Shown one piece after another: positions 7,093 through 64,000 of a DNA stretch of 64,000 bases. This DNA comes from an uncultured Bacteroidia bacterium (GTDB taxonomy: Bacteria > Bacteroidota > Bacteroidia > Bacteroidales > Prolixibacteraceae), in assembly GCA_903897145.1 (NCBI GenBank), contig CAIUAN010000018.1, forward strand, positions 50,889-114,888, written 5' to 3'. The position numbers were made by a program, and so were the translations under genes. Every line of letters starts with the position of its first letter. The stretch's first letter is position 1. The notes beneath the pieces are model-generated. The model ran no database searches. It was not told where the DNA came from and saw nothing but the letters and a program-made list of their open reading frames with translations.

Positions 7093-7097
7093 TTTTA

Positions 7098-7142
7098 ACT
7101 TATAAAAAAAGCGAAACAAAATGTTTCGCTTTTTTTATAAGT
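7098..7142. terminator. Bidirectional intrinsic terminator
   Basis: Long palindrome ACTTATAAAAAAAGCGAAAC-AAAAT-GTTTCGCTTTTTTTATAAGT between convergent genes. It has a GC core stem flanked by A/T runs on both sides. Confidence 0.7.
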
Positions 7143-7151
7143 GGATCTCAT

Positions 7152-49978: not shown

Positions 49979-50112
49979 TATTTGATTTTAGGTCTATCCC
50001 ATTTTGCAAAATCTTTTCAAACACTCCCGCTATTGTCGCAATGACCAGAGATCCAAATGTAAATAGAAAACACAGGGCCAGATGCAAAATAAACTAAAGT
50101 TCTCATTATAGT

Positions 50113-50820
50113 TTAAAAATGAGTTGATAAGCTATATCTGTCATGAGGTCTAAAGTCTGTGTTTTTTTCTAAAACTTTAAAAAGAAGTTCATTAACAGCA
50201 ATAATAATATTTGAATAGATATCTAACCTCTTTCTTTGAAATACCTCAGACATTTCAATAGTGTTTTTTGTTCCATGAAAAATATTATTACGCACAATGT
50301 AAATAAATCGGATAATATCGTTTTTTAATTTCCCGATTTTAATTTCATTAGATTTTAATAAGTTTTCAAATTCTTTTTTAAAGTTTTCCCTTTCAGATTC
50401 TGTAATGCGATTGTCTGGTGTTATCTTTGAAATTGTTTCAATAGTCCTTTCAATAGCATCTTTGCCCTTTATTATTTTAATAAACAACTCTTTATCATTA
50501 TTGTCGACCTTTGAAAAGATAAAGTCAATCATTGCTTTGTACTTTTGACCTTCAGATGGCTCAATTTCCTTTCCATCTTCGACTTTTTTATGGAATGCAG
50601 TTAGTTCACTTTTTTTCAAACTTTCTTCCCAATCAAAATTATAGAATGAATTAAAAGCAAAGTAAGCATAAATGAATTTGGAGGGTTCAAATAATTTCCA
50701 CGCTCCTCTTTCGTATTCAACAATATGGTCATATTTATCCGTAATGTAGTGTAACCTATATAGGTCCTCAATTTCTTCAGCGAAATTGTTTCGATTAATT
50801 ATTGTCAATTCTTCTTCCAT
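50113..50820 (-). CDS. HEPN-motif protein (putative RNase toxin/abortive-infection-type effector)
   Basis: The C-terminal helix carries VRNNIFHG, an Rx4H HEPN signature. The sequence is all-alpha, Lys/Glu-rich and 235 aa. There is no attC-like element 3' of it. Confidence 0.45.
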   Translation of the reverse strand: MEEELTIINRNNFAEEIEDLYRLHYITDKYDHIVEYERGAWKLFEPSKFIYAYFAFNSFYNFDWEESLKKSELTAFHKKVEDGKEIEPSEGQKYKAMIDFIFSKVDNNDKELFIKIIKGKDAIERTIETISKITPDNRITESERENFKKEFENLLKSNEIKIGKLKNDIIRFIYIVRNNIFHGTKNTIEMSEVFQRKRLDIYSNIIIAVNELLFKVLEKNTDFRPHDRYSLSTHF

Positions 50821-50837
50821 GTCATTTTTTTAGAGTT

Positions 50838-50919
50838 GCTGCTAACGGTTTGCGTGTAGGCGATGTTACCTTGTGTTGCGCCTGCGGCAAGGTAATATTG
50901 CTTACACGCTGTTACAGGC
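50838..50919 (-). repeat. attC-like site A
   Basis: The left box GCTGCTAAC and right box GTTACAGGC flank a 22-bp stem (GCGTGTAGGCGATGTTACCTTG / CAAGGTAATATTGCTTACACGC) containing three G-T wobbles on the plus strand. The site starts 10 nt after the upstream stop codon and ends 17 nt before the next ATG. Confidence 0.75.
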
Positions 50920-50929
50920 TGGCGTTCTT

Positions 50930-52117
50930 TCAGTTTGCAAGTCGTTTGAGTTCATCACTATATTTTAAAAGCTCCGTTTCTACTTTATTTACTATGTCTG
51001 TAATTGTTGACCATTCAGCGTCAAGGATTTTTTTAACTTCAGCTTCATCAACTTCAGTCATTTCATCGGTTTCAAATTTCCAAGTGTGTTGAAAATGAAC
51101 AAGCCATTTTTTCCCGCTTGGTTTTTTGTGTCCTGGAATGTTTTCAAAAGCTTTGCAAAACAAATTTTGAATTTCACTATCACCTGGAGAAATTACTGTC
51201 TTAAATACTGCTTTCTTTTTAGACCATATAAAGTCAATTTCAAAAAGAAAATTTTCTTTTAAAGGCCAACCTTGTCCTTTTTTGGGGATGATGTCATTCA
51301 GTGTTTTTGTTAAAAACCTTGCATAACCTTTATGCTTAGAACCCATAACCCAATCAGATTGGGTTATTTTATCAACAAAAACTGGATAAAGTTCTAAAGC
51401 AATATCGGACTTGTTTTCAAATACAAAGTCTAAAAGTTCCCTGTGATTTTTGTATATTTTAACTGCAAGTTCATTTAGTTCATCATTTTTCATTAGTTCT
51501 CGTTTTATAGTTGTTAGGTAGTCAGAGATATACTGGTGAACTCCGACATTTAAAGATTTACCGTGAATTTGAAGAACTCTGTCGGCTTGTTCAATAATTT
51601 CTTCATATGAATATGGTGCGTAAAATTCCCTTTCTTTTGGTGCTAATGGTGTCTCGCCAGTAGGCGTTAAGTAAACAAAAACTTTTTTGTGTTTTATAAA
51701 TGTGTCATTTACGATTGTTCTATATTTTGCAAGCTGATTTGAATGATCTTGCGTATCAATTTTATTCTCAATGCAAATTACAATAGTGTCGAATACAATT
51801 AAAAGGTCAATGTTTTTCCATTCTCTACGAAGTTCTACATTATTAAAATTTAGTTCTTCTATTTCGAATTCGTCCAAATCACTTGCAATTTCTGATGTTG
51901 CAATATCACGAAGAAATTTTGTAAGGAAGAGTTTGCCAAGTCCGTGAGTTCCATTCGGATCAAGAAGCCAAGCTAAAAAATTTGAATGTCGAATTTCAGC
52001 CCGTGAAATATTAAGTATTTGAAAAATATTAGGTGTCTTTAACTGCAACTCTATTTTGTCGAAGTCAAGGTCGTTAAGCAAGTGTCGATATTTTTCTCTA
52101 ATTTCTTGTTCTGTCAT
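50930..52117 (-). CDS. PD-(D/E)XK nuclease family protein (PDDEXK_4-like)
   Basis: N-terminal NIFQIL..EIRHSNFLAWLLDPNGTHGLG segment and the core IDLLIVFDTIVICIENK (D...ExK). Confidence 0.6.
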   Translation of the reverse strand: MTEQEIREKYRHLLNDLDFDKIELQLKTPNIFQILNISRAEIRHSNFLAWLLDPNGTHGLGKLFLTKFLRDIATSEIASDLDEFEIEELNFNNVELRREWKNIDLLIVFDTIVICIENKIDTQDHSNQLAKYRTIVNDTFIKHKKVFVYLTPTGETPLAPKEREFYAPYSYEEIIEQADRVLQIHGKSLNVGVHQYISDYLTTIKRELMKNDELNELAVKIYKNHRELLDFVFENKSDIALELYPVFVDKITQSDWVMGSKHKGYARFLTKTLNDIIPKKGQGWPLKENFLFEIDFIWSKKKAVFKTVISPGDSEIQNLFCKAFENIPGHKKPSGKKWLVHFQHTWKFETDEMTEVDEAEVKKILDAEWSTITDIVNKVETELLKYSDELKRLAN

Positions 52118-52143
52118 AATTTCTTAGTTGTTTTCTTACGCTT

Positions 52144-52224
52144 GCTTATAACGTTTTGCGTGTAGGCGATTTTGCCTTGTGTTGTGCCTGCGGCAAGGCA
52201 ATATTGCTTAAACGCTGTTATAGC
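52144..52224 (-). repeat. attC-like site B
   Basis: About 85% identical to site A, with a compensatory A-T to G-C change in the stem (TTGCCTTG/CAAGGCAA versus TTACCTTG/CAAGGTAA). Boxes are GCTTATAAC and GTTATAGC. Confidence 0.75.
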
Positions 52225-52231
52225 TAGTTTA

Positions 52232-53281
52232 TTAATCTGCATTGTCGTTGTAATTAATTAATCCATCAATTGTATTTTCAAAAAATGACAATAAGATTCT
52301 TTGCAATAGTTCCCTTGGCGCATTCTCTTCAGCAATATTTTGATCTTCTCGAAACTTTATAACGCAATTATTTCTTCTAACCATCCCTCTATTAACTGCT
52401 GCCGGACTAACCGCTGAGTATAATTGCAGTATTTTAATATGACCGTCTATTGAAAGTCGCATTCTCAAAATAACCTTTGTCGTAAGTAATTTATTTAGTT
52501 CGCGTCTTGCAATATTTGTTCTGGGTCCCTCATTGATTTGACTCCAATTTTCCGGATCTTCATTTCTTGAAATTTCAATTTTGTACCCCTGATCATTTGC
52601 CCCTTTTAAAAATAACCTAAATGCATCACGATCATCTAATATATAATTTCCATGTCTATCAAATAAATGATTATTACGGTTATTTGAGCCAAAAAAGCTA
52701 GCGTTAGTAAAATATAGTCTGTCAATGTGGGCGCAACTGAAAATAAGCGAGAAAACTGAATTATTTAAAACAATATTATTCAAAAGCTTGTCCTCTGCAG
52801 TGTATGCAAAATCTCGTAGTTCTCTTTGACAAAAGGCAATTATGTCTGTGTATGCAATAAGGTTTTCTTGTAATGCATTTTTAATTTGGAGGGGTTGTTC
52901 ATTTCGAGCAAACTGTAATATGTTATCAAAATTTATAGGACAATACTTCCATAAAGAAGAATAATTGCCATGAAAATAGGGAAGGTCTGGTGGAGAAATA
53001 TTTCCGTTAAATGATAAGTTCGGTAAACCTAATTGGTCGCAGAGATATGATATTGGTGGAAATGTTCCTATCATTAAACCTGTAGTAGTGGCGCAATGAA
53101 TTTCCTCTAAATAAGGATGTTTTTCAAATGGCGGGACTATTGATAATACTCCGTTGTTATCTGCAATTACTTGAATTGAATGCTGATTTATTAATTCGTA
53201 ATTGTGTGGGTTACTATGATCTATATCTGCTAATCCTAGAGCTTCACTAAGTAGTTGTAGATTATTGTTTCGATGTATCAT
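52232..53281 (-). CDS. UDG-superfamily-like protein (hypoxanthine/uracil-DNA-glycosylase-like motifs), function unknown
   Basis: Five collinear motif resemblances to the TIGR04274-type glycosylases. These are LMIGTFPPISY (ILGSxPS), YFHGNYSSLWKY (YYxxPxNxFW), YTDIIAFCQRE (WDVxxxCxR), YFTNASF (FNGxxA) and LYSAVSPAA (LPSTSPA). There are long insertions between them. Confidence 0.45.
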   Translation of the reverse strand: MIHRNNNLQLLSEALGLADIDHSNPHNYELINQHSIQVIADNNGVLSIVPPFEKHPYLEEIHCATTTGLMIGTFPPISYLCDQLGLPNLSFNGNISPPDLPYFHGNYSSLWKYCPINFDNILQFARNEQPLQIKNALQENLIAYTDIIAFCQRELRDFAYTAEDKLLNNIVLNNSVFSLIFSCAHIDRLYFTNASFFGSNNRNNHLFDRHGNYILDDRDAFRLFLKGANDQGYKIEISRNEDPENWSQINEGPRTNIARRELNKLLTTKVILRMRLSIDGHIKILQLYSAVSPAAVNRGMVRRNNCVIKFREDQNIAEENAPRELLQRILLSFFENTIDGLINYNDNAD

Positions 53282-53299
53282 TGTAATGTAATTTAAATT

Positions 53300-53443
53300 G
53301 GCTATAACGGTTTGAAACTATATGCAGTTGCCGACTGCGTCCGCCAGCTGGCGGATGTCGAATCCCACCACCGATGTTACGGGCTGTAAACTTCACAATC
53401 AGCACAGAAACGGCAATTGTCATATAGTTTTTGTTATGGCGCG
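53300..53443 (-). repeat. attC-like site C
   Basis: Boxes are GGCTATAAC and GTTATGGCGC. The spacer GGTTT is followed by an L-type stem GAAACTATATGCAGTTGCCG / CGGCAATTGTCATATAGTTT with bulged bases and a ~75-nt GC-rich terminal structure. Confidence 0.7.
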
Positions 53444-53457
53444 TAATTCATTCAATA

Positions 53458-53769
53458 CTAAACATCTATTGAAATACTTACTTTTCCACCCAGTCCTTTT
53501 TCAACAATGTCAAAAAGCGTACTCAATGTTATATTGCTGCCATCATTCTCAACACGAGAAATATAGGTTCTTTTTTTGTCTATGATTTGTCCTAATTCCT
53601 CTTGAGTCATATGTCGCGATTCTCTTGCCTTTTTTAATAAAAGTCCGATTTTAAAAGATTCGGCTTCTCTCTCAAGATTATCGCGTCTTTCAGTCCCTTT
53701 TTCTCCGTAAACCTGATCCTTAATTTGAGGCCAGGTCGCAATGTCTTTGTTGTTATTTTCTGCTTTCAT
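53458..53769 (-). CDS. XRE-family HTH antitoxin (HigA-like)
   Basis: HTH segment TQEELGQIIDKKRTYISRVENDGSNITLSTL. It overlaps the toxin gene by 17 nt. Confidence 0.8.
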   Translation of the reverse strand: MKAENNNKDIATWPQIKDQVYGEKGTERRDNLEREAESFKIGLLLKKARESRHMTQEELGQIIDKKRTYISRVENDGSNITLSTLFDIVEKGLGGKVSISIDV

Positions 53770-54094
53770 AATACTCTTTCATTAAATTTATTGCTTTCTC
53801 AATTTCGTTTTTCGGCGTTTTCTGTGTTTTTTTCTGAAATCCATTTAGAAGGATCACTAATTTTCCTTTATCGAAGAAGCAGAAAACACGCCAAATGTCT
53901 GTCCCTAATAGAATTCTCGCTTCATAAAGTCCATTTGTCCCAGTAATTTGTTTTAAATAATTTGTCGGAATTCTCTCTAATGTCTCGATGGCTTCAATGA
54001 TTTTGAAGATCTTGTTCTGAACCTTGATTGGTTGCTTTTTCAAGAAATCTACGAAAAAGTTTTTGTATGCAATTACTTTTCGAATTTTCTCCAT
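53753..54094 (-). CDS. RelE/ParE-superfamily toxin (HigB / phage Gp49-like, DUF891)
   Basis: LYEARILLGTDIWRVFCFFDKGKLVILLNGFQKKTQKTPKNEIEKA matches the Gp49-like toxin pattern. Toxin-first gene order is as in higBA. Confidence 0.8.
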   Translation of the reverse strand: MEKIRKVIAYKNFFVDFLKKQPIKVQNKIFKIIEAIETLERIPTNYLKQITGTNGLYEARILLGTDIWRVFCFFDKGKLVILLNGFQKKTQKTPKNEIEKAINLMKEYYESRK

Positions 54095-54112
54095 CTGTCA
54101 TTAAAATAAACC

Positions 54113-54144
54113 CAAAGGTAACTTTAAAGTTACAATTTTCCAAA
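54113..54144 (-). promoter_or_regulatory. Cassette-internal promoter with overlapping palindromic operator for the TA pair
   Basis: The minus strand reads TTTG-N20-TACCTTTG, i.e. Bacteroidota -33/-7 boxes, 18 nt upstream of the toxin ATG. The perfect 16-bp palindrome GTAACTTTAAAGTTAC (54118-54133) overlaps the -7 box. Confidence 0.5.
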
Positions 54145-54174
54145 TCGAAATTGATGTGTCGGGGTATTTATTAT

Positions 54175-54310
54175 GCGCCATAACGGCTGACGCTATGGCA
54201 AGTGCGGGAATAAATTGCTGCTCAACTGTCTGCCAGCACTGAACTTAATTTGAAGCACAAAGCTTCATTTAAGCATTGAACCCGCTTTTTTGCCAAACGG
54301 CTGTTATGCG
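54175..54310 (-). repeat. attC-like site D
   Basis: Boxes are GCGCCATAAC and GTTATGCG. Imperfect stems are TGGCAA/TTGCCA and GCGGG/CCCGC. It contains a 59-nt internal module shared with site F. Confidence 0.7.
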
Positions 54311-54317
54311 TTCGTTT

Positions 54318-55142
54318 TTATTCCAGCTTAATCTTTCTTGTTTTTCCTGTTTGTAATTCTTTTAGTATGTCCAACTTCTGAATTTTTGAATTGTCAAGTT
54401 TATAAACTAAAATAAATTTCATTTCTGTCAAGTCAATGAATGTAGTATAAAGAGTTCCACCTATTTTGCCTGTCGAGTCTTTTTGAGGTAGTTGAACTGC
54501 CTTTCCAATTACATTACCTACAGCTTTTAGGTCAATAGTGTCCTTTGGATTTCTTGCGTCCAATTCATCTAAACCTTTCTGAATTATCGGGTATCTCCAG
54601 CAAGTCATTTCAGTTTGAATAGTGTCTGACAGATTAAAATTTGTCGAAACAAGTCGATTGTTTTTGATTTCAACAATATTTTTAACACCATTTATCCATT
54701 CAACAATTACCGCTTTACCATTTTTGTCACCCAATAAAATGTGTGCGTTATTTAGAGCATTTTTTTCTTGTTCTAAGTACTGGATTACTTCATCTACTGT
54801 CCTACATTTTGCCAATATCTTGTCCGTGAAATTGCCTTTTGGAGATGAATAACCTGAGGGGATTTTTTGTTCTGGTGTTACAGCTCCGTCAATTACCAAT
54901 CCTTTCTCATTAATACCTCCTTGTCCAAAATTTTTCCAGCCGTACCAAATCCGACCCAATTCGTCTTTTGAACTTGGGTTGATTTGTATATATGGCTTTA
55001 CATCATACCAGTAATCTTCATTATTTATAAAATATATTTTACCAGTCTTACTGTCTATATAGTAAATTATAGAACAAGCGAATGATTTTTCGGAAATTAT
55101 AATAATGGAAATTAAAAGTACTAGATATTTAAATGCCTTCAT
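54318..55142 (-). CDS. Secreted Ntn-hydrolase-like protein (choloylglycine hydrolase / C45 acyltransferase-like)
   Basis: The signal peptide ends ...SEKSFA, immediately followed by Cys (CSIIYY), the arrangement of an N-terminal nucleophile. A GINEKGLVIDG motif resembles the GxNEKGL motif of this fold. Confidence 0.5.
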   Translation of the reverse strand: MKAFKYLVLLISIIIISEKSFACSIIYYIDSKTGKIYFINNEDYWYDVKPYIQINPSSKDELGRIWYGWKNFGQGGINEKGLVIDGAVTPEQKIPSGYSSPKGNFTDKILAKCRTVDEVIQYLEQEKNALNNAHILLGDKNGKAVIVEWINGVKNIVEIKNNRLVSTNFNLSDTIQTEMTCWRYPIIQKGLDELDARNPKDTIDLKAVGNVIGKAVQLPQKDSTGKIGGTLYTTFIDLTEMKFILVYKLDNSKIQKLDILKELQTGKTRKIKLE

Positions 55143-55170
55143 TTGTGATGGTTGTTTCGTCTTTTAAATG

Positions 55171-55329
55171 CCGCATAACGTAGGAAGCTACACGCAGGGG
55201 CGGACTGCGGGTCCCGAATCCTCGGGATCAAGCCGAAAAGCAGCCCGGGCGGAATCGAAGATCAGCGAAGCTAAAGATGCACACCGAAAACCACCGCTGC
55301 CGCACTTGCCGGGTAGCTGAAGTTGTGCG
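55171..55329 (-). repeat. attC-like site E
   Basis: Boxes are CCGCATAAC and GTTGTGCG (one T-G wobble when paired). There is an AGCTAC/GTAGCT stem and a GC-rich terminal structure (CCCGA-ATCC-TCGGG, GCCCGGGC). Confidence 0.65.
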
Positions 55330-55337
55330 TTCGTGCT

Positions 55338-56099
55338 TTATTTTAAACAATTTGGAAGCATTTCTAAAAATCCTAAACATTTGTCGTAATTCAATTCATA
55401 ATAATTTACTCCCAAATTTATAGTCTCATAATATCGGGCTTGGTTTACTTTATAATATTCCTCTGATGATATTTTCCAATAATCACGACCCAATTTCTCT
55501 GTAATAAACCACTTTTCAAGTAATCGGGCAGCTCTGCCGTTTCCATCTCGAAACGGATGAATATGTGCAAATCTTAAATGAATCAACGAGGCAAAATAAA
55601 AGACTTCTTTTTCGCTAAGGCTTGAAGAAATCAATTCTTCAATATCGTGGAAAAATGTTTTCATTTCTTGTTTAACAAATTCAGGTTCAATTGCCATATA
55701 AGCTAAGCCTGACTTACCAAAAACGCCTACCTGCTCAATCCGATATTTCCCTCTTTTGCTTTTAATTAGTAAGGTCTCTGAAAAGATTTTATGACAAGTC
55801 AACAAATTTGCCTCATTCAAATTATTTTTTTGGGCAAATTCGTACGCTTCAATCAAATCTTCTATCTCTTCTATCTCTTTTCCAATTTTGAATTTATCTT
55901 TGTTTAATTCATAATTCATATATGAGTTCAAGTCAATGCTATTTCCCTCAATATTCGAAGAATAAATCGCTGAAGATTTTGTCAAATAGTCGAAACTTCT
56001 TTTGTTTTCAGAAAAATCAAAATCCTGAATTAATCTGGGAATTTTATTTCCAATAGTCTGAATATAAGTGTCTAAATATTTTCTTTCAGTTATTCTCAT
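55338..56099 (-). CDS. Fic/DOC family protein (class II, intramolecular inhibitory motif)
   Basis: Fic motif HIHPFRDGNGRAARLL. The N-terminal SSNIEGN matches the (S/T)xxxE(G/N) inhibitory helix. Confidence 0.9.
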   Translation of the reverse strand: MRITERKYLDTYIQTIGNKIPRLIQDFDFSENKRSFDYLTKSSAIYSSNIEGNSIDLNSYMNYELNKDKFKIGKEIEEIEDLIEAYEFAQKNNLNEANLLTCHKIFSETLLIKSKRGKYRIEQVGVFGKSGLAYMAIEPEFVKQEMKTFFHDIEELISSSLSEKEVFYFASLIHLRFAHIHPFRDGNGRAARLLEKWFITEKLGRDYWKISSEEYYKVNQARYYETINLGVNYYELNYDKCLGFLEMLPNCLK

Positions 56100-56118
56100 C
56101 TAGTCAATTTATTAAACA

Positions 56119-56126
56119 CAAATATA
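56119..56126 (-). promoter_or_regulatory. -7 promoter box (TATATTTG) inside the Fic cassette
   Basis: Exact TAnnTTTG on the minus strand, 19 nt upstream of the Fic ATG. Confidence 0.35.
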
Positions 56127-56175
56127 CTCATTTTTATTGTCAAACCCTTATGGTAGTGCAGTTTCCCATAGCATG

Positions 56176-56311
56176 GCGCACAACGGTTTGCAGCTACAAG
56201 AAGTTGGCGATTTCGGAGACGAAAACTGTCTGCCAGCACTGAACTTGATACGAAGCACAAAGCTTGATATAACCACTGAACCGCCAATTTCTTGTAGGTG
56301 CTGTTATAAGC
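56176..56311 (-). repeat. attC-like site F
   Basis: Boxes are GCGCACAAC and GTTATAAGC. The spacer GGTTT is followed by the stem GCAGCTACAAGAAGTTGGCG / CGCCAATTTCTTGTAGGTGC (one G-T wobble, one mismatch). It shares a 59-nt module with site D. Confidence 0.7.
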
Positions 56312-56319
56312 TGCCTTTC

Positions 56320-56580
56320 TTATCGTTCTCGCCATTTGCTTTCTAATCCCATAAAATCCTCCAAATGATACACAGAGTCAGAATAAGAGAAAAGAATGGT
56401 TCGGTCGTCAACAATTGTGTATTTTTTTCTTTTTTCAACCGGCAACTTTTGTATGTCTGGAAAATATTTTAATGGAACAATAATTACACGACCATCTTCA
56501 AGTTTCAGTGATATTTTTCCCACGCTATCGAAATTTAATTTTTCGATACAAATTTTGGTATTTTTAAGTGTAGTTGTCAT
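56320..56580 (-). CDS. DUF2442 domain protein
   Basis: 86 aa with LEDGRVIIVPLKYFP...L segments typical of DUF2442. Its start directly abuts the stop of the DUF4160 gene. Confidence 0.7.
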   Translation of the reverse strand: MTTTLKNTKICIEKLNFDSVGKISLKLEDGRVIIVPLKYFPDIQKLPVEKRKKYTIVDDRTILFSYSDSVYHLEDFMGLESKWRER

Positions 56581-56859
56581 TTATTTTAATTTTATAGTAG
56601 TTATTTTTTGACCATTTTTCACCTTGTTAAATGAGTCAATCAGTATTATTTGATTCTTTTTAATCAAACTAATTGCTTGATTTAATTCCTTCTCGTTTAG
56701 TGTACCTTTTTCAGCAACTTTAAAAGTCTCCAACCAAACTTTTGCAGAACGTTGTCGATTTCCTTTTTCTTTAACAATATGCAAATGCGGTGGCTCATTA
56801 AGCGCATCGTAGGCGAAAATAAAAAAAGTCAGAAATTTATAAATAGCAATTTTAGGCAT
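56581..56859 (-). CDS. DUF4160 domain protein
   Basis: MPKIAIYKF...NEPPHLHI is typical of DUF4160. The ATG at 56859 is preferred over the TTG at 56865 used in the track. Confidence 0.7.
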   Translation of the reverse strand: MPKIAIYKFLTFFIFAYDALNEPPHLHIVKEKGNRQRSAKVWLETFKVAEKGTLNEKELNQAISLIKKNQIILIDSFNKVKNGQKITTIKLK

Positions 56860-56909
56860 AATCAAATATAGATTTTAATTTTCAACTTGTCAAGTTCTAT
56901 TTTAAGGTT

Positions 56910-57053
56910 GCTTATAACGGACACACACATGCGCTGTGCTGGCTGTAAGTATCTAAATAGCAAGCAAGTATCAACCAGCACCAAAGCTACTAAATACGTA
57001 AAATGCTCAAAGTTCCGACAGCCAGCATAGCCGCTATGTGTGATGTTAGCACC
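56910..57053 (-). repeat. attC-like site G
   Basis: Boxes are GCTTATAAC and GTTAGCACC. The stem is CACACATGCGCTGTGCTGGCTGT / ACAGCCAGCATAGCCGCTATGTGTG with bulges. Confidence 0.7.
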
Positions 57054-57067
57054 ATTTTTTTTTGTCG

Positions 57068-58456
57068 TTAATTCCAAAAGTCTAATAAATTGGTTATCGC
57101 CTCGTTAAACAATTTTGGTGCTTTGATACCCAAAATCAATTCTCCGTTTTCGTTTAGCAAAAATCCAATCTCTATTTCAATGATTTCTTGCTCTTTACTG
57201 CCGTATAGAACAACCGTTCTAATAATTTTGAATTTGGGGTAATGTTTTTGTATGTAATTTTTCTCAATGTATTCATAATTATTGAGTTCCTTTATTCCGT
57301 CTTTGCGGAATTTATATTTCTTACCTTCTACATTTATAACTTCACTGCGTCCAAAATCTATCAAAATTAAGTCAGGAATATAAATTATTTGTTCTTTATC
57401 GCCGTCTTTGTATTTGGCTCTGTCTTTGTATTTTGCTAATGGAACTGGTTCTCCTTCCTTCGTATAAAAATATCCCTTTTCGCATCCTGCGTGATTTTCA
57501 AATATAGAGTAACCTTCTGTAAAATTTTCAACAACCAAATGAATGAAAATCGTTCCTAATTTTTCGCCGTCAATGTCGTATTTCCAATAATCTGAATTTA
57601 ATTCAGCTTTTGGAACAGTTAGTCCTTGTAATGAGATATTTAACTTGTTTGCTATTTGAACAAATTTATTTGTTTTTCCTACATGTTCTTGTTTTAAACC
57701 ATGTTGAGTAATAACAAGTTGATTTTTCCATTCTAATTTACGTAAAACTGCACAAATTATGCTCAATGCTCCAATATTGGGGTCGTGTGAAAGTCCGCCA
57801 CTTTTAAATAATCTGCCCGAAATTTCGATTTTATTTTTCGATTTTGTAAGCGTAATTGGAACATTTCCTTTTGGTGCTTTTCGCATATTTGCTTTTAATT
57901 CAATAATTTCGTCTACTGTTTCAAATGGCTTAAAAATAGAGAAATCTAATTTTTTGCCCAAAATCTCAACACCCAAAGTTAATAAAAGTCGTGTTCCAAA
58001 AATATACGTGTCGGTTGGATTTTCCTTTTGCTCAATTTGCAAACTGTAAAGCATTATTTTTCTTACAGTTGGATAATAGTTTTGAATGAATACAAATTTT
58101 GAACAACGTTGATAAACTCCTGTATTTCTGCTTTCTTTGTCGTCTGTCTTTGTTTCTTCAATTGCGTAAATTGGTTGGTCATTGATTGTTGGTTCGTCTT
58201 TTTGGTAAAAAATTAGAAAATCTGTGAAACTCGAATTTCCTGAAACAGTTTTTATGTAAACCTTATCAACTTTGTTACAGCGAAAACCTGTAACTTCATA
58301 AGTGAATGTAAATTTGTTGTTTTCAAGTATCGGAAATATTCGCAAAGTGTCCACAAAAACTGCAAATCTATAATCTTTGGCAAACTTTTGAAATATAGTT
58401 TGTAAGACTTCTTTTTTAGGGCGTTCTTCTGTTAAAAACCAAAGATTATTTTTCAT
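57068..58456 (-). CDS. Putative restriction endonuclease (N-terminal recognition region, C-terminal PD-ExK catalytic motif; type IIS-like architecture)
   Basis: The start is re-assigned to the ATG at 58456 (MKNNLWFLTEERP), overlapping the methylase stop by 11 nt. The C-terminal IPDLILIDFGRSEVINVEGKK fits PD...ExK. It lies last in an operon with two methylases. Confidence 0.5.
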   Translation of the reverse strand: MKNNLWFLTEERPKKEVLQTIFQKFAKDYRFAVFVDTLRIFPILENNKFTFTYEVTGFRCNKVDKVYIKTVSGNSSFTDFLIFYQKDEPTINDQPIYAIEETKTDDKESRNTGVYQRCSKFVFIQNYYPTVRKIMLYSLQIEQKENPTDTYIFGTRLLLTLGVEILGKKLDFSIFKPFETVDEIIELKANMRKAPKGNVPITLTKSKNKIEISGRLFKSGGLSHDPNIGALSIICAVLRKLEWKNQLVITQHGLKQEHVGKTNKFVQIANKLNISLQGLTVPKAELNSDYWKYDIDGEKLGTIFIHLVVENFTEGYSIFENHAGCEKGYFYTKEGEPVPLAKYKDRAKYKDGDKEQIIYIPDLILIDFGRSEVINVEGKKYKFRKDGIKELNNYEYIEKNYIQKHYPKFKIIRTVVLYGSKEQEIIEIEIGFLLNENGELILGIKAPKLFNEAITNLLDFWN

Positions 58457-59513
58457 TTTTTCGTAAAATAAAGAGTTGTTCTTGAATATATTTTTTGTGT
58501 TTGCTGTCGCTGTTGCTATTACTTTTAAAACGTAAATAATCAAACTCAACTAATTCAACTGTTCCAAATTGTTCCAAAACTGAAATTATTTTTTGTTTTG
58601 GCATAATTCCTTCTGTGTTGTAACTTAATATCAGTGTTTTATATTTACCATTTTTAGCAATTTTATGCAATTCTTGTAAACCGTTTTCTGAATTGCAGAA
58701 TAATGATTTTTGATTTTCATAATTTCGCATCCCTGAAACTCCTTTAATTTCAGGATTGTCATATTTTGCAATCGTTTCCATTAAATGATAATTCGGTGCA
58801 TATTGTCGTTGATTATATGGTGGGTCAAGGTAGAAAATATCTGCATTTACTTGTTCTAATAAATTGACAGAATTATCATTATATGAAAAATTTTGTTTGT
58901 TATTTTTTACTGTTTCTATCGGTCTTAATTGAATTTTTTTTACGGCTCTTGGGTCCCACTGTTTTTGAAACGCTGCGTAAACTCCTGAAACATTGGCATA
59001 AAAAGGAACTGTTTCGATCAAACAAGCCAATAATGCAAAATATTCATTTTCAATAATTAATTCATTGTTTTTCCAATTTTCAATCTGTTGTCTAATGGTA
59101 TCAATTATTTTTCCATTTTCGTTGTTAAAATACATTCTTGGTAATTCCAAATTTGCTGTTCCTTCCGGCGTATAATTTTGATAAATAAAACCTTCTGTAA
59201 TATCTAAATTATTCAAATATTCTACAACTAAATTCAATGGGGTTGCAAATAACGAATTACTTTTTATATTAATATTTTTCAATAATTTATCAAAAGTCAA
59301 ATCTTGATTGTTTTGAATATATGCACGCTGTAGAATATATGAAAAATACAATAAATCAGATGAATATACCTGATAATCTAATTTTTTAAAAAATCTTCCG
59401 ACATTTGTCGTTCCTGCAAAGAAATCAAAAAACGAATTTCCATTAATTGCTTTTGATTGCATTATTTGATAAATCTTTTCTACTAAGTTCTCTTTGTTTC
59501 CAATAAATCGCAT
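58446..59513 (-). CDS. D12-class N6-adenine DNA methyltransferase
   Basis: MRFIGNK start, FFDFFAGTTNVG (motif I) and YLDPPYNQRQY (motif IV, DPPY). Confidence 0.8.
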   Translation of the reverse strand: MRFIGNKENLVEKIYQIMQSKAINGNSFFDFFAGTTNVGRFFKKLDYQVYSSDLLYFSYILQRAYIQNNQDLTFDKLLKNINIKSNSLFATPLNLVVEYLNNLDITEGFIYQNYTPEGTANLELPRMYFNNENGKIIDTIRQQIENWKNNELIIENEYFALLACLIETVPFYANVSGVYAAFQKQWDPRAVKKIQLRPIETVKNNKQNFSYNDNSVNLLEQVNADIFYLDPPYNQRQYAPNYHLMETIAKYDNPEIKGVSGMRNYENQKSLFCNSENGLQELHKIAKNGKYKTLILSYNTEGIMPKQKIISVLEQFGTVELVEFDYLRFKSNSNSDSKHKKYIQEQLFILRKNEK

Positions 59514-59671
59514 TTCATTTAATTTAAATTATCAAATAATGTTTTCGCTTTTTGCTGTTCAATCGGTTCATAATTAGTAATTAAAACTTCAATACTTGCG
59601 TCTTTATCTCTAATTATAGTTTGATAATTTGAATTTGAATAATTGATGTTTATATAATTAATTCTATATTC

Positions 59672-60454
59672 TTAATTAGTATTTAACCATTTTTTTAAGA
59701 TTTCGTTTGATTTTCCTTTGTGTTCCAAAACATTAGACAAAGCAAATTTTATTTTTTGACTATTTAGTTTATCTAATGTATTCAATAATTCTCGTTCTTC
59801 TTTTTCTGTCCAACCTTTGAAACCACGTTTTCCGTCGTTGTAAGTACCTGTGGTTATTAAATATGGTGGGTCGGCGTAAACAAAATCATTTTCGGTTAAA
59901 ATTGAAAAATCAAATTCTTCAAAACTTTTACAAGTAAATTCTATACTATTCTGTTTTAAACGATTATGAAACATTTCCAAATTTTGTTTCATTGTGGCGT
60001 TAAAACTGCTGCGTTCTCTACCAAACGGATTATTAAATTCGTGGTCGTTGTTAAATCTTATTTGATGATTAAAGGAATACGAAATCAATAGAAACAAGTC
60101 CAACGGATTTTTAGTCTTGTTGTAAAATTCTCTTATTTTTTTGAAACCTTCTTCGTTTGTCAAAGACAAATTATATTCAGAAATTCTATTTTGAATATGC
60201 TGTATAATTGTTTGTAAATCTGATTTATAAAATGCTTTATACATTTCAATCAAATAAATCAAATTGTCATTAAAGTAGATTTTATTTGCATTTGTATTAA
60301 TTCCAACATTACATCCACCTGCAAATAAATCAATAAATTGATTGATATTTTTGGGAAATAAAGGCAAAATTTGATTTAATATTTTTTGCTTTCCGCCAAT
60401 ATAATTTAATGGCGACTTTATTGTATTATTTTGTTTTATTTGCGTTCCGTTCAT
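59672..60454 (-). CDS. Dam-family (D12-class) N6-adenine DNA methyltransferase
   Basis: LNYIGGKQK, FIDLFAGGCNVG and YADPPYLITTGTYNDG motifs. Confidence 0.85.
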   Translation of the reverse strand: MNGTQIKQNNTIKSPLNYIGGKQKILNQILPLFPKNINQFIDLFAGGCNVGINTNANKIYFNDNLIYLIEMYKAFYKSDLQTIIQHIQNRISEYNLSLTNEEGFKKIREFYNKTKNPLDLFLLISYSFNHQIRFNNDHEFNNPFGRERSSFNATMKQNLEMFHNRLKQNSIEFTCKSFEEFDFSILTENDFVYADPPYLITTGTYNDGKRGFKGWTEKEERELLNTLDKLNSQKIKFALSNVLEHKGKSNEILKKWLNTN

Positions 60455-60470
60455 ATTTTTTGCTTTTCTG

Positions 60471-60478
60471 CAAAATTA
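60471..60478 (-). promoter_or_regulatory. -7 promoter box (TAATTTTG) for the RM operon
   Basis: Exact TAnnTTTG on the minus strand, 16 nt upstream of the Dam-like ATG. It is preceded by the tandem 8-mer TTAACGAA x2 (60487-60502). Confidence 0.35.
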
Positions 60479-60524
60479 ATCAATTTTTCGTTAATTCGTT
60501 AATTTGGGCGTATCGTTTTTTATT

Positions 60525-60659
60525 GGTGCTAACGTTCGAGGCTATAAAACGTAGGGGTTTGCGTGCTTGCGAATGTATCAACCGATACAAACCTTGCCAG
60601 CGGGATAAAATGTTGCTAAACCTCTTAAACCCCTATGTTTTATGAGCCTTTGTTGTGCC
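60525..60659 (-). repeat. attC-like site H
   Basis: Boxes are GGTGCTAAC and GTTGTGCC. The stem is AGGCTATAAAACGTAGGGGTTT / AAACCCCTATGTTTTATGAGCCT, with one extrahelical C and one G-T wobble on the plus strand. Confidence 0.7.
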
Positions 60660-60671
60660 TTCGTTGTTTTT

Positions 60672-63600
60672 TTATTCCTTCAATTTAATTACTAATTCGT
60701 TAAGACTTTTATCTATAGTGTTTATTGCGGCATTATCATCAAAGAGTTTGTGTGCTTTGATAGACAAATCTGAAAGCTCTTTATGTACTTTGTTGTTTTT
60801 GTCAAAATCAGGAATAAAAACAGGCGGGTTAATTTTAAAAGACCTTGAATCAGATGAATTTAAAATATACGATTCAGTTACTGGAGCATTTAGGATAGCA
60901 CAAATATAATGGGCTTCTTCAAGTGTTATGAAACCCCCAGAACTATTTTGTGAAATTGTAACGGCATGGTTTTGAAATTGAGGCCTTTTCAATTCGCCCC
61001 AAGGTGTCAAAACGGAGCTTACCACACAAGACTGCCATTTTGAATTGTCTCTAAATGCAACATAATGGTCAGCAAAACTATACTCACCAACACGAGCTAA
61101 AGCATAAAATTCTGTATTATGCTTTTCTCCAATTATTTTTTCGTTGTATTGGGTTTGGGATTCAAAAACCGTTTTGAATTTATTAAAATATGTCGCTAAT
61201 AATTTTGAACCTTTAGTTAATTCTTTAATTGTTATTGGACTTCTTGTATTTGTTTTTTCATAAGGAAACGGAACTATATAATTTGACTTCAACAAATGAA
61301 ATCTTTCAATGTCCACACCTTTAATCAAAGGATGTAAATACTTCTTCTCTAAAGGAAATGATTCTAATGGTATTTTATATTTCGATTTTTTGTTTTGATA
61401 ATTCTTGATGATAACTGTATCTTTTGAAACAGGCATATCGTTGTCAACTTCCAACAAAAATAATTCTTGAGGATAAAACTCAATCCCTTCTCTTCCCTTG
61501 TAGCTGGCAACGCCCGATATTTTAGTAAAAGAGTTAAGTTCCACTTCATTTTTAGCACAAGAAAAAATTGTGCTATTTTCATTTGCTTGTCCAGCCAGCT
61601 CTATTGACTCCGTGAATACATCTTTTAACAATGAATAGTCCGTAATATTAGAATAAGTTTTCAAGTCATAACCTTTATTCTTTATGAAGTATTTCAATGG
61701 AATACCCTGCTTGTAATCAACCTTTTTATTAGAAAAAAAGAATGTTAAAAACTTATGGGTAACTGGGTCAAAAGGATGACCAGCTTTTGTCCAATCATAG
61801 AGTTGTTGAAAATACAAATTTCTATTCTCTTCAAGTTTAAATTGTCTGAACCCTTCATAGGTTTGTTGGAAAATGATTGTTTGAGGCATTAAAAATGCCA
61901 AAACGCCATTCTCTTTTAACCAATTCATAGCTGAAACATTAGAGATTAATGCACAAATATTTAAGTTAATTCCACCAGTTAAACTGTCGCCTGAGAATAA
62001 ATGTCTTTCGATACATATAGATTTTACTCGTTCTCTGTAACCTGCTGGCAAGTTCTTCCAATCAATCCAAGGAGGGTTACCTACAATTAAATCAAATTTA
62101 CCAAGGTTTGCGGTAGTCAAAAAGTTTGTAACAATTCTTGCCCAGATTCCATTCCATTCATTTCTTTCAAGGTCAACAAATTGCTCTGCTAATGAATTAA
62201 TTCTATTAGATATTTCAGTAGTTAAATCCTTTTCAGGGATAATTGCCGACAACTTTTCTTGTATTGAAACAGCATCTAAATTATGAATGTCTTGTTCAAT
62301 ACTTGTCATTGTTTTAGAAAACAAAACTGGGTCTGAAACAGCACTTTTCGGCAAGTCAATATTAATAAAACCTTTAATGGTCTTGATGCTGTAATTGATA
62401 CAATCAATATTATCAATTACAACTTTAGAAGGTACATATGAAGAGTCACCAAGATAAACTGGAATTTCAAATTCATCATCGTCTGAAATTAGGTGAGATA
62501 TATTAATAAAGTAATTAATTCTTGATGTAAGAACGGCTAATGGGTTTAAGTCTATTGCTTTAACCCTATTTAAGACCGCATTCAATCTTTCTTTATTATT
62601 GAGTTGTATTGTTTCAAGTAAAACGTGTTTTATCAAAACAGTAACGAAAGTACCAGAGCCTGCACAAGGGTCAAGTGCAGTCCAATTCTGCTTAGCCGGG
62701 TTTAGATTGATTGTTTCCCTAATTAAATTATCGGCTAACCAAGATGGTGTATAAAACTCACCAAGGCTATGTCTAACCTTGTCGGGTATTATTTTCATAA
62801 ATAATTCCCTGAATAAATCTTGGACATTTTCGCCTGTTTGAAATAGTGCTTTGTCTTCGTATTGTGTTAAAATTTTAAAGATTTCTTGAACCAATCCACC
62901 AATTTCGTTTGTCCATTGGTTTGATGAACAATACCAAGCAAAAAAGTCGCCTTCCAATAAATTACCAATTCCAAGACTTCTGAAAATTGCACCTTCTTCA
63001 AGTGAATTCATTTGATGTCTTAATGTATCAAAGTCAGTTTCGGATAATTTATTAAAGTCAATTAGGCTTTTGTTAAACCTGATTTTACTAATAACTTTAT
63101 ACGCAATTATCTTAACAATAATAGCATAAGTAGTTTGAATAGCATATAATGCTAAATATTCATCTTCGTTTGTTTTTAACTCTTCGCCTATTGTTTCTTC
63201 TAACGATTTCTTTCTATCTTCAATTGCTTTTTGCTTTGAGTTATCATCGTGTGCTAATCTGAATAACTCTTTCCATTCATTAAAAAGCATCAGGGAACGC
63301 CCAGTTGGACTGTTTTTCAAAGTGTTGAATAAACAAAGCGTTAATTTGTTTGAAAGACTTTTGTCTGATTCGCAAAAGTCTTTTACTAAATTTTCTGGCG
63401 TTAAAGCAACTTTATCAAGTAATACAATACTTTTAATAATTCTATCTATATGTTTTGAAGATAGTTTTTCAAACGCGCCTTCATTTATAAGACCATTTTC
63501 AATATTGATTAATTTACATTGAGTACCATCAGTCACAAGACCAAAATAATCTAAAGTATGTTTTTTATTTAAGCCCTTTAGATAGTCAATAAGTTGAGAG

Positions 63601-63938
63601 GAAGCCTTGTCTTTATGTTCTGTTGATAAGAGTTTAGATGTATGTTTAAATTCAATTACCAATGCACCAATTTTACTGTCAATTCTACCTTTAGAAATAT
63701 GCCTTTCGGTATTGATTGTCTTTTCTTTTTCTGGATAGTATTTTAGTCCAAGAGTATCCTTTATAAACGAAAAAAGTTCAAGTTCAAAAATTGAAACGAT
63801 ACTTGCTTCGTTTTCAGCTTTTTTTGATTCTGTATAAATATCGTTACTCACTTCAGCCAACAGTTCAGCATATTCGGTTGTCCGAATTAGTGTTTCTATT
63901 TGCTTTATTTTGAATTTGCTTTTCTTTATTTTGTCCAT
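60672..63938 (-). CDS. Type IIG/IIL restriction-modification enzyme (fused PD-ExK nuclease, gamma-class N6-adenine methyltransferase and target-recognition region)
   Basis: N-terminal GRIDSKIGALVIEFKH (D...ExK, MmeI-like), GEFYTPSWLA, motif I LDPCAGSGTF and motif IV VGNPPWIDW. It is 1088 aa with a long C-terminal region. Confidence 0.8.
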   Translation of the reverse strand: MDKIKKSKFKIKQIETLIRTTEYAELLAEVSNDIYTESKKAENEASIVSIFELELFSFIKDTLGLKYYPEKEKTINTERHISKGRIDSKIGALVIEFKHTSKLLSTEHKDKASSQLIDYLKGLNKKHTLDYFGLVTDGTQCKLINIENGLINEGAFEKLSSKHIDRIIKSIVLLDKVALTPENLVKDFCESDKSLSNKLTLCLFNTLKNSPTGRSLMLFNEWKELFRLAHDDNSKQKAIEDRKKSLEETIGEELKTNEDEYLALYAIQTTYAIIVKIIAYKVISKIRFNKSLIDFNKLSETDFDTLRHQMNSLEEGAIFRSLGIGNLLEGDFFAWYCSSNQWTNEIGGLVQEIFKILTQYEDKALFQTGENVQDLFRELFMKIIPDKVRHSLGEFYTPSWLADNLIRETINLNPAKQNWTALDPCAGSGTFVTVLIKHVLLETIQLNNKERLNAVLNRVKAIDLNPLAVLTSRINYFINISHLISDDDEFEIPVYLGDSSYVPSKVVIDNIDCINYSIKTIKGFINIDLPKSAVSDPVLFSKTMTSIEQDIHNLDAVSIQEKLSAIIPEKDLTTEISNRINSLAEQFVDLERNEWNGIWARIVTNFLTTANLGKFDLIVGNPPWIDWKNLPAGYRERVKSICIERHLFSGDSLTGGINLNICALISNVSAMNWLKENGVLAFLMPQTIIFQQTYEGFRQFKLEENRNLYFQQLYDWTKAGHPFDPVTHKFLTFFFSNKKVDYKQGIPLKYFIKNKGYDLKTYSNITDYSLLKDVFTESIELAGQANENSTIFSCAKNEVELNSFTKISGVASYKGREGIEFYPQELFLLEVDNDMPVSKDTVIIKNYQNKKSKYKIPLESFPLEKKYLHPLIKGVDIERFHLLKSNYIVPFPYEKTNTRSPITIKELTKGSKLLATYFNKFKTVFESQTQYNEKIIGEKHNTEFYALARVGEYSFADHYVAFRDNSKWQSCVVSSVLTPWGELKRPQFQNHAVTISQNSSGGFITLEEAHYICAILNAPVTESYILNSSDSRSFKINPPVFIPDFDKNNKVHKELSDLSIKAHKLFDDNAAINTIDKSLNELVIKLKE

Positions 63939-63954
63939 TATATTTTTAAAGTGT

Positions 63955-63962
63955 CAAAGATA
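63955..63962 (-). promoter_or_regulatory. -7 promoter box (TATCTTTG) for the type IIG gene
   Basis: Exact TAnnTTTG on the minus strand, 16 nt upstream of the ATG at 63938. Confidence 0.35.
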
Positions 63963-64000
63963 GACTTTCTTAATTGTTTCTTGTTTAGTTAAGTATCGCT

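Follow-up and report, generated by a model that had tools for sequence, protein, structure and literature searches.

Does the AT-rich end of this 64,000-nucleotide (nt) stretch of contig CAIUAN010000018.1 (hereafter the window), from an uncultured Bacteroidia bacterium of the Prolixibacteraceae, hold an integron-type array of gene cassettes? Integrons are the textbook system of gene capture and shuffling, and knowledge of them comes almost entirely from Proteobacteria. An initial annotation of the window had read eight hairpins at 50838-60659 as attC-like recombination sites. We find that the block from 50.1 to 64.0 kb is very probably a chromosomal, sedentary integron-type cassette array in a Bacteroidia genome, and that this array is probably a Bacteroidota variant that departs from the textbook integron in its sites and probably in its recombinase as well. 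Integrons of Bacteroidota have been recorded but are described as rare, and there is no taxon-specific attC model for the phylum (PMC9024848, PMC8618304, PMC8352920). The 2022 IntegronFinder census named one complete integron in Bacteroidetes proper, in Salinibacter ruber, in addition to those of Chlorobi and Ignavibacteriae (PMC9024848).

The block is AT-rich, with 25-36% GC against about 40% in the remaining window, and the hairpins within it are GC-richer (44-51%), as had been described. According to the table of open reading frames (ORFs), it holds nine gene units, and all of its ORFs lie on the minus strand, in agreement with the single orientation reported at the outset. All eight predicted sites are present, one at the 3′ end of each of eight units, and the gap from stop codon to site start is 5-15 nt at all eight, close to the 7-14 nt first given. 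The units measure 0.73-3.6 kb, as against the earlier range of 0.6-3.5 kb.

The eight sites lie on the plus strand at 50837-50920 (A, which ends the cassette of a PD-(D/E)XK nuclease family gene, PDDEXK_4), 52143-52226 (B, 86% identical to A), 53299-53442 (C), 54175-54312 (D), 55170-55331 (E), 56175-56312 (F), 56909-57054 (G) and 60524-60661 (H, which ends cassette 1). In the same order, the first A of the AAC core stands at 50844, 52150, 53306, 54182, 55177, 56182, 56916 and 60531, and the G of the GTT core at 50911, 52217, 53433, 54303, 55322, 56303, 57045 and 60652. The lengths from AAC to GTT are thus 70, 70, 130, 124, 148, 124, 132 and 124 nt; A and B form a 70-nt class, and D, F and H belong to a 124-nt class. 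Read on the plus strand, each site consists of N7-AAC, a G with 4 further nt (GGTTT in A, C and F; other variants are GTTTT, GGCTG, GTAGG, GGACA and GTTCG), an imperfect stem of at least 20 base pairs (bp) around a variable loop of up to about 80 nt, and T-GTT-N7. AAC and GTT are invariant in 8/8 window sites and in 22 related sites, and the bases flanking the core (GTTAT, GTTAG or GTTGT) fit GTTRRRY only loosely. The attC layout assigned by the initial annotation therefore holds for the AAC/GTT boxes, the long stem and the variable terminal structure, while its unpaired spacer proved to be a one-sided bulge of 4 nt. The bulged stem bases that it described are inconsistent: C (one extra T), G (two bases) and H carry extra bases, in each case on the 3′ arm, and A, B, F and most of the 124-nt class have none.

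The terminal structure accounts for the spread in total length (70-148 nt), and within the 124-nt class the loop is partly conserved; those of D (54224-54282) and F (56224-56282) are 88% identical over 59 nt. Some sites of L005 and L099 contain the D/F loop motif too, with its small GAAGC-ACAAA-GCTTC hairpin. L-numbers denote the comparison loci that we fetched: L005 is a Halpernia metagenome-assembled genome (MAG), L024 belongs to the Prolixibacteraceae, and L077 and L078 are class 1 integron controls. The loop of the 124-nt class seems to be constrained.

In integrons the crossover falls inside the core (G|TT on the coding strand), and the box at the end of a cassette pairs with the box at its start, which lies in the neighbouring site. 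This pattern is seen in the window. The 7 nt past the GTT of one site complement the 7 nt before the AAC of the next at 4, 6, 7, 5, 5, 6 and 7 positions from A to H, as compared with 3, 4, 4, 3, 4, 3, 4 and 1 of 7 when the two boxes of the same site are compared. The neighbour-box sum of 40/49 stands against 21.9 +/- 4.2 under random assignment, and only 9 of 200,000 permutations reach 40. The left box of H, TGGTGCTAAC, is the exact complement of the right box of G (7/7), the right box of C complements the left box of D at 7/7 positions, and that of F the left box of G at 6/7. Even the boxes of the irregular site E follow the neighbour rule, with 5/7 for D to E and 5/7 for E to F against 4/7 within the site itself. 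Boxes that match the neighbour better than their own partner are what cutting of cassettes at G|TT would leave, each site being a chimera of two cassettes.

A single-stranded substrate on the bottom strand is the defining property of attC sites. In 8/8 sites the plus strand, the bottom strand relative to the genes, folds more stably than the other (total -196 vs -164 kcal/mol), and DNA folding of this strand exceeds dinucleotide shuffles in seven sites, with z-scores of -5.3 (A), -4.0 (B), -3.8 (G and H), -3.2 (C), -3.1 (D) and -3.0 (F). When all eight sites were simply aligned with MAFFT, RNAalifold returned no structure; the alignment worked once it was limited to the 124-nt class, with 19 sites from 10 sources (D, F and H of the window and 16 from nine other loci). 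In these 19 sites the 25 proposed pairs are 90.7% paired, 19 of the pairs show compensatory change, and the covariation score is 0.62, as compared with 0.19 for shuffled controls and about 0.1 for controls with slid partners. G·T cells number 62 and A·C cells 17, and three G·T wobble positions are conserved. One of the three is invariant, the G that follows AAC being paired in 19/19 sequences with the T that precedes GTT. Thus the sites are under selection to fold as single strands on the strand opposite the genes. Because the conserved G·T pairs exist only on that strand, the structure is not a terminator of the cassette mRNAs.

We then asked whether such sites occur outside the array. A covariance model, R1, built from the 19-site alignment was run unfiltered on both strands of the whole 64-kb window and found seven of the eight sites, namely the three training sites F (127 bits), D (92 bits) and H (86 bits) and the four untrained sites A (59 bits), C (51 bits), B (48 bits) and G (27 bits), the untrained matches having E-values from 1e-12 to 1e-4, the last being that of G. 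Over positions 1-50000 it gave no match with E below 0.1, and one probable false positive of 20 bits fell at 61662-61762, inside the 1088-amino-acid (aa) gene of cassette 1. R1 also detects arrays in L005, L024, L083, L087, L093 and L097-L100, and in the other fetched loci no sites were found outside arrays.

A separate scanner for AAC...GTT stems gave six sites scores of 17.5-21 and E a score of 14.5 but did not find D; its sole other match above 14.5 in the 64 kb was a hairpin at 7085-7157 with a score of 18.0. We rejected this hairpin as a site, as it is a bidirectional intrinsic terminator between the convergent genes at 5458-7092 (plus strand) and 7152-8177 (minus strand). It is a perfect AT-rich hairpin, ATAAAAAAAGCGAAACA...TGTTTCGCTTTTTTTAT.

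These results bear on the view that the hairpins are dispersed repeats of the repetitive extragenic palindromic (REP) or miniature inverted-repeat transposable element (MITE) type, or transcription terminators. Their position just past each stop codon and their high GC relative to the surroundings would suit such elements. Dispersed repeats had been named at the outset as the outcome that would count against an array; the remaining 50 kb of the window, however, contain no copy, and other loci show the sites only in arrays. A terminator reading is further opposed by the lack of a T-run, by stems of at least 20 bp with loops of up to about 80 nt, and by the G·T pairs that are conserved on the strand not transcribed with the genes. 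Neither type of element accounts for boxes that are chimeric between neighbours, and an Rfam search of the sites returned only two sub-threshold chance matches and no such family. The probability of this explanation is close to negligible, and we conclude that the hairpins are recombination sites, neither terminators nor dispersed repeats.

If the sites recombine, single cassettes should be found in other arrays, and this was the case. Relatives of cassette 1 were collected from genome and metagenome scans with its 1088-aa protein, which is an Eco57I-type restriction-modification enzyme. The protein is 96% identical in L025, 91% in L005, 84% in L026, 80% in L002 and 71% in L024, and the neighbouring genes differ. 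In L025 the gene stands behind a different cassette and a 65-nt site; in L005 and in the 12-site array of L024 it lies inside the array; and in L002 and L026 a site follows the gene. In addition, the whole PDDEXK_4 cassette is 92.6% identical in ten contigs (L083-L092), and the homology spans the AAC of B to the AAC of A. In L083 and L087 a counterpart of site A follows the same gene, with identity 3′ of AAC and divergence exactly 5′ of AAC. The comparisons thus show cassettes that are independently mobile between Bacteroidota arrays, with boundaries at the conserved AAC (G|TT on the top strand). Identity above 90% between genomes implies that the exchange was recent. MAGs labelled Halpernia, Prolixibacteraceae and Bacteroidetes carry the shared site type and cassettes, as do several contigs from freshwater metagenomes. 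Taken together, the chimeric boxes, the covariation, the confinement of the sites and the shared cassettes that break at AAC/GTT bear out the cassette-array reading of the initial annotation.

That annotation had also expected a tyrosine recombinase, if one existed, to the right of position 64,000. In a second assembly, which carries an identical 1088-aa gene, the gene of a tyrosine recombinase of 304 aa does lie there, 197 bp upstream of the cassette 1 gene and on the same strand as the cassettes. In window-equivalent coordinates, from the gene table of that assembly, it would lie at about 64136-65050 on the minus strand; it is called full length, and its precomputed domains are PF13495 (Phage_int_SAM_4) and PF00589 (Phage_integrase). 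Core genes (ilvD-ilvBN-leu) follow past it on the opposite strand. The window itself ends in the leader of cassette 1 (63939-64000, minus strand), and an attI-like site together with the 304-aa gene is expected just past the window edge. L025 extends this leader up to the cassette start, GTTATGCCTC.

The properties of the recombinase can be approached through L083, which shares the PDDEXK_4 cassette and has a 279-aa recombinase directly upstream of its array in the same orientation. This sister protein passes NF040815, 'XerA / site-specific tyrosine recombinase/integron integrase', with 221.6 bits (cutoff 220), and stays below TIGR02249, the integron integrase model (209.2 vs a cutoff of 265, with the match in two pieces), although its TIGR02249 score exceeds its XerC and XerD scores. 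Aligned with IntI1 it has a gap of 43-47 aa at the position of the IntI-specific domain, which is an insertion close to patch III. Its closest solved structures are archaeal XerA (PDB 4a8e, 5hxy), followed by VchIntIA, and sister recombinases also combine PF13495 and PF00589, that is, a SAM_4-type N-domain and a catalytic domain. Among the 150 closest cluster representatives, seven sampled relatives of 294-374 aa lack the IntI insertion; many of the 150 exceed 279 aa and have about 100 residues ahead of the region that matched. A tblastn search with IntI1 against 78 of the fetched loci found no integron integrase outside the two controls, the only other match being a weak generic one (26%) in L066. 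The annotations of Crocinitomicaceae and Fluviicola MAGs include proteins closely homologous to the sister recombinase.

Could the 304-aa gene nevertheless encode a genuine IntI that has the additional domain, with ordinary attC of the kind called by IntegronFinder as its sites, which would make this array a rare Bacteroidota member of the canonical integrons? The overall architecture is identical to that of an integron, there is precedent in Bacteroidota with the complete integron of Salinibacter ruber (PMC9024848; PMC8618304), cassette-oriented integrases are known in Spirochaetota (PMC9668308), and 304 aa is 25 aa more than the 279-aa sister, which could accommodate an insertion. Against this, the recombinases of arrays with the same cassette and site type lack the insertion, as do all seven sampled relatives, the site geometry is non-canonical, and the IntI1 search found no integron integrase in those 78 loci beyond the controls. 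We consider a canonical integron quite unlikely.

Where does the array begin? Ten contigs (the L093-L102 group) carry an identical recombinase, P0245, with differing genes downstream, mostly on the same strand, and R1 matches follow these downstream genes. About 95 nt after the P0245 stop codon are conserved, and wherever the downstream sequence suffices the contigs diverge exactly after ...GGGTATAAGTAA|GTTA; the exceptions are L097, which deviates, and L096, which ends too early. The motif TATAAGTAAGTT is also found in L103 after P0345, a recombinase with 48% identity, and in L088 and L090 a close variant, TATAAGGTAGTT, comes after what remains of a decayed recombinase. The conserved sequence after the sister recombinases thus looks like an attI-like site, ...TATAAGTAA|GTTA..., with crossover at G|TT, to which different first cassettes have been joined. 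For the present genome the predicted junction of attI and first cassette is ...TATAAGTAA|GTTATGCC....

Three further observations concern these platforms. In L097 (1904-1960) the junction with the first cassette lies 45 nt upstream of the usual attI point (AAACAG|TTAGCG vs ...TAAGTAA|GTTAGC), which points to a secondary insertion site or to a deletion inside attI. L103 and L104, with P0345 at 6001-6930, both end 132 nt past the recombinase stop, just beyond TATAAGTAAGTT, and these ends are consistent with assembly failure at a hypervariable array. In most of the sister platforms examined the recombinase gene (for example at L093:7001-7840) is preceded by an ORF6N-domain gene that ends 6 nt before it.

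The sister recombinase scores best on the XerA model and resembles archaeal XerA in structure, so that the protein might instead be a housekeeping Xer, with the units integrated at an adjacent dif-like site in the style of integrative mobile elements exploiting Xer (IMEX) or of dif modules. Xer recombinases can integrate folded single-stranded DNA, as with the CTX phage, and in some single-Xer systems the site adjoins the gene (XerS/difSL). A housekeeping role is difficult to reconcile with the decay of the recombinase in L088 and L090, where it is dispensable, or with the occurrence of the identical P0245 in two upstream contexts, imuB-dnaE2 and SSB-CreD. The latter implies that the platform itself may be mobile or multi-copy. 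The sites, moreover, are hairpins of 70-148 nt that all face the same way, and not 28-bp duplex sites whose orientation alternates, and the SAM_4 N-domain together with a TIGR02249 score above XerC/XerD favours the integron side. We regard the housekeeping Xer as very improbable.

Under the integron-type reading, a working model can be proposed by analogy with integron integrases. The recombinase would bind the folded bottom-strand hairpin through an R helix in which ..ATAACG is paired with TGTTAT.., and the stem next to it would serve as the L box. Cleavage at AA|C would release cassettes as circles, which would then insert at the attI-like site in the manner of integron integrases. The model builds on what is shown above, namely which strand folds, where the crossover falls, that arrays share cassettes and that a recombinase gene adjoins, and on the insertion site found in relatives. 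In Vibrio IntI, the extrahelical bases are read by the IntI-specific domain. The one-sided bulge, the sparse extrahelical bases and the insertion-less recombinase of the relatives would therefore fit together.

It is conceivable, with a probability a little short of even, that the array belongs to a distinct and widespread class of Bacteroidota integrons, with a compact XerA/IntI-like integrase without the IntI domain, often accompanied by ORF6N, and with sites in which a GTTT bulge on one side and G·T wobbles at fixed positions take the place of the two-sided spacer and the extrahelical bases.

Several points weigh against the integron-type reading or parts of it. The two-sided unpaired central spacer of attC is not seen, the 4 unpaired nt lying on the 5′ arm only; canonical attC membership is unproven and the geometry differs; and R1 does not match the attC sites of the class 1 integron controls L077 and L078. 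Site E, with its irregular stem, is weak (fold z only -1.4) and has no covariance-model match. In the L005 array the box rule holds for only 2/5 neighbour pairs. No attC-like site follows the terminal unit, neither on reading the sequence nor with the covariance model at 50000-50112. The gene table shows no ORF6N partner called upstream of the 304-aa recombinase, and the assignment of this protein to the compact XerA/IntI-like family without the IntI insertion is drawn from its relatives and is accordingly less certain. The catalytic steps are put forward by analogy with integrons, and recombination is deduced here from the sequences. Finally, cassette order is the same in other assemblies of the same population, so that there is no evidence of ongoing rearrangement. 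The presence/absence comparison suggested at the outset thus succeeded in part: it yielded shared cassettes with breaks at AAC/GTT between loci, and the same order within the population, and in the related genome L082, where cassette polymorphism was expected, there was none to compare as the whole array is absent.

The box-rule exceptions in L005 are accompanied by a peculiarity of that locus, in which the sites at 6191, 13285 and 21382 share an identical left box, TTTTTCCCAAC, and break the neighbour-complement rule. The exceptions may reflect missed sites or a second type of junction.

The constant order, seen in independent assemblies, and the last unit, which has lost its site, raise the possibility of a decayed and immobile relic, with a neighbouring recombinase that is inactive or unrelated, similar to an attC cluster that has no integron integrase (CALIN). 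Decay is indeed found among the relatives. L088 (379-561) and L090 (65-226) retain only the last ~55 recombinase codons, beside a Flavodoxin_2 first cassette that is the same as that behind the intact L083 recombinase; they are a decayed platform, now a cluster without integrase. L025 and L105 are a cluster without recombinase, and no recombinase remnant was found in the 1.4-kb gap of L025. In the window, in contrast, seven sites have near-intact stems and invariant AAC/GTT cores, the recombinase gene is called full length at the expected position and orientation, and the cassettes that are more than 90% identical between genomes point to recent exchange. A relic is therefore unlikely, and we retain the reading as an integron-type array.

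How does this array compare with known systems? It resembles the sedentary chromosomal integrons, such as the Vibrio superintegron and those of Xanthomonas, in its platform flanked by core genes, its co-oriented tandem of mostly promoterless cassettes, its AAC...GTT hairpins with G|TT chimeric boxes, bottom-strand folding bias and variable loop, and its cargo rich in toxin-antitoxin, restriction-modification and defence genes (10.1101/2024.07.02.601686). Unlike them, it is small (nine units), its recombinase faces the cassette direction, a 4-nt bulge on one side and an invariant G·T beside AAC/GTT stand in its sites where attC has a two-sided unpaired spacer, only 3/8 sites carry extrahelical bases, and the sister recombinases are without the IntI domain. 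Spirochaetota integrons typically have their integrase in cassette orientation (PMC9668308). The present array is like them in that the integrase is read in the cassette direction with the insertion site, as seen in the sister platforms, at its 3′ side. Spirochaetota integrases are generally IntI with the additional domain, and their attC sites are generally found by standard models, two features that the present array may lack.

Software would label the array a CALIN at best if the recombinase fails the IntI profile, and the relatives L025/L105, L088 and L090 are indeed clusters without an intact recombinase. The present array differs from a CALIN in that an intact tyrosine recombinase gene adjoins it and that relatives show the coupling to an insertion site. 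The sister recombinase is compact like archaeal XerA/NF040815 (about 280 aa, without the insertion), whereas XerA resolves chromosome dimers at duplex dif, and the array recombinase is tied to hypervariable cassettes and is dispensable. In CTX-type IMEX a recombinase of the Xer type, which has no IntI domain, acts on a single strand folded into a hairpin, and pdif modules carry modular cargo between recombinase sites. However, both CTX and the Acinetobacter pdif systems depend on host XerC/D and 28-bp dif-like sites (alternating in pdif), and have no co-oriented hairpin arrays beside a dedicated recombinase gene.

In the literature we found no description of Bacteroidota arrays with insertion-less recombinases, within an incomplete coverage. 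The window offers a well-preserved chromosomal array from the Bacteroidia that stockpiles restriction-modification, toxin-antitoxin and candidate defence genes. If its recombinase is truly without the IntI-specific domain, it shows how hairpin recognition can work without that domain and provides a natural experiment on the co-evolution of integrase and site; profile-based surveys would then undercount integrons in a major phylum. Should the distinct class hold, current finders miss or mislabel its members, and integron-type capture is far commoner in Bacteroidota than reported.

The cargo consists mainly of anti-phage defence and toxin-antitoxin genes, and matches in Pfam, PADLOC and NCBIfam support the toxin-antitoxin, restriction-modification and defence content first assigned to it. 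All of the genes lie on the minus strand. Cassette 1 (60672-63938) encodes the 1088-aa type IIG restriction-modification enzyme of the Eco57I family (PF07669; PADLOC REase_MTase_IIG, 4.9e-154). Cassette 2 (57068-60454) holds the three genes of a type II system (PADLOC MTase_II, REase_II, 1.4e-66), namely D12 methyltransferases of 260 aa (59672-60454) and 355 aa (58446-59513), both PF02086, and a type II restriction endonuclease (57068-58459; REase_II, 1.4e-66); the covariance model gave no match to an internal site between G and H. Cassette 3 (56320-56865) is a pair of DUF4160 (56581-56865) and DUF2442 (56320-56580) genes according to Pfam, and cassette 4 (55338-56099) encodes a SoFic-like Fic-domain protein (PF02661; PADLOC SoFic, 1.9e-24). 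Cassette 5 (54318-55142) encodes a C45/AAT-like hydrolase (PF03417; NCBIfam NF040521 below cutoff) with a hydrophobic N-terminus that, judged by eye, resembles a signal peptide. Cassette 6 (53458-54094) is a toxin-antitoxin pair with matches to NCBIfam toxin-antitoxin models, comprising a Gp49/RelE-like toxin (53753-54094; PF05973) and an HTH_3 antitoxin (53458-53769; PF01381). Cassette 7 (52232-53281) encodes a 349-aa protein without a match in Pfam, PADLOC or NCBIfam. Cassette 8 (50930-52117) is the PDDEXK_4 nuclease gene (Pfam, 6e-32), a defence candidate through PADLOC PDC-S26 (1.3e-129).

The cassettes had been described as using Bacteroidota promoters, which holds only in part. Leaders are only 24-35 nt long in the cassettes after sites A, B, C and E; this is too short for a promoter, and these four cassettes are thus promoterless. 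The leader of the toxin-antitoxin cassette (54095-54182) carries a perfect 16-nt palindrome, GTAACTTTAAAGTTAC, beside a TAccTTTG motif of the TAnnTTTG type (the Bacteroidota -7 type), and looks like an autoregulated promoter with a palindromic operator inside the cassette.

The terminal unit (50113-50820, minus strand) encodes a 235-aa protein that has no match in Pfam, PADLOC or NCBIfam and is absent from L082. The distal end of the array falls at 49979-50112 (no strand assigned), where L082 has an intact DUF2975 gene and the window, at 49979-50082, retains only a 3′ remnant of it, about the last 37 codons. The blastn homology with L082, whose flanking lipase is 92% identical and which is without the entire array at the corresponding position, ends at window position 50082, which places the distal junction within 50083-50112. 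Within cassette 2, four independent assemblies of the population are broken near 59652, a point about 139 nt upstream of the gene for the 355-aa methyltransferase, in the 25%-GC spacer that separates the two methyltransferase genes, and a fifth, the recombinase-bearing contig, ends within the 260-aa methyltransferase gene. The breaks around 59652 could reflect a drop in coverage or strain heterogeneity.

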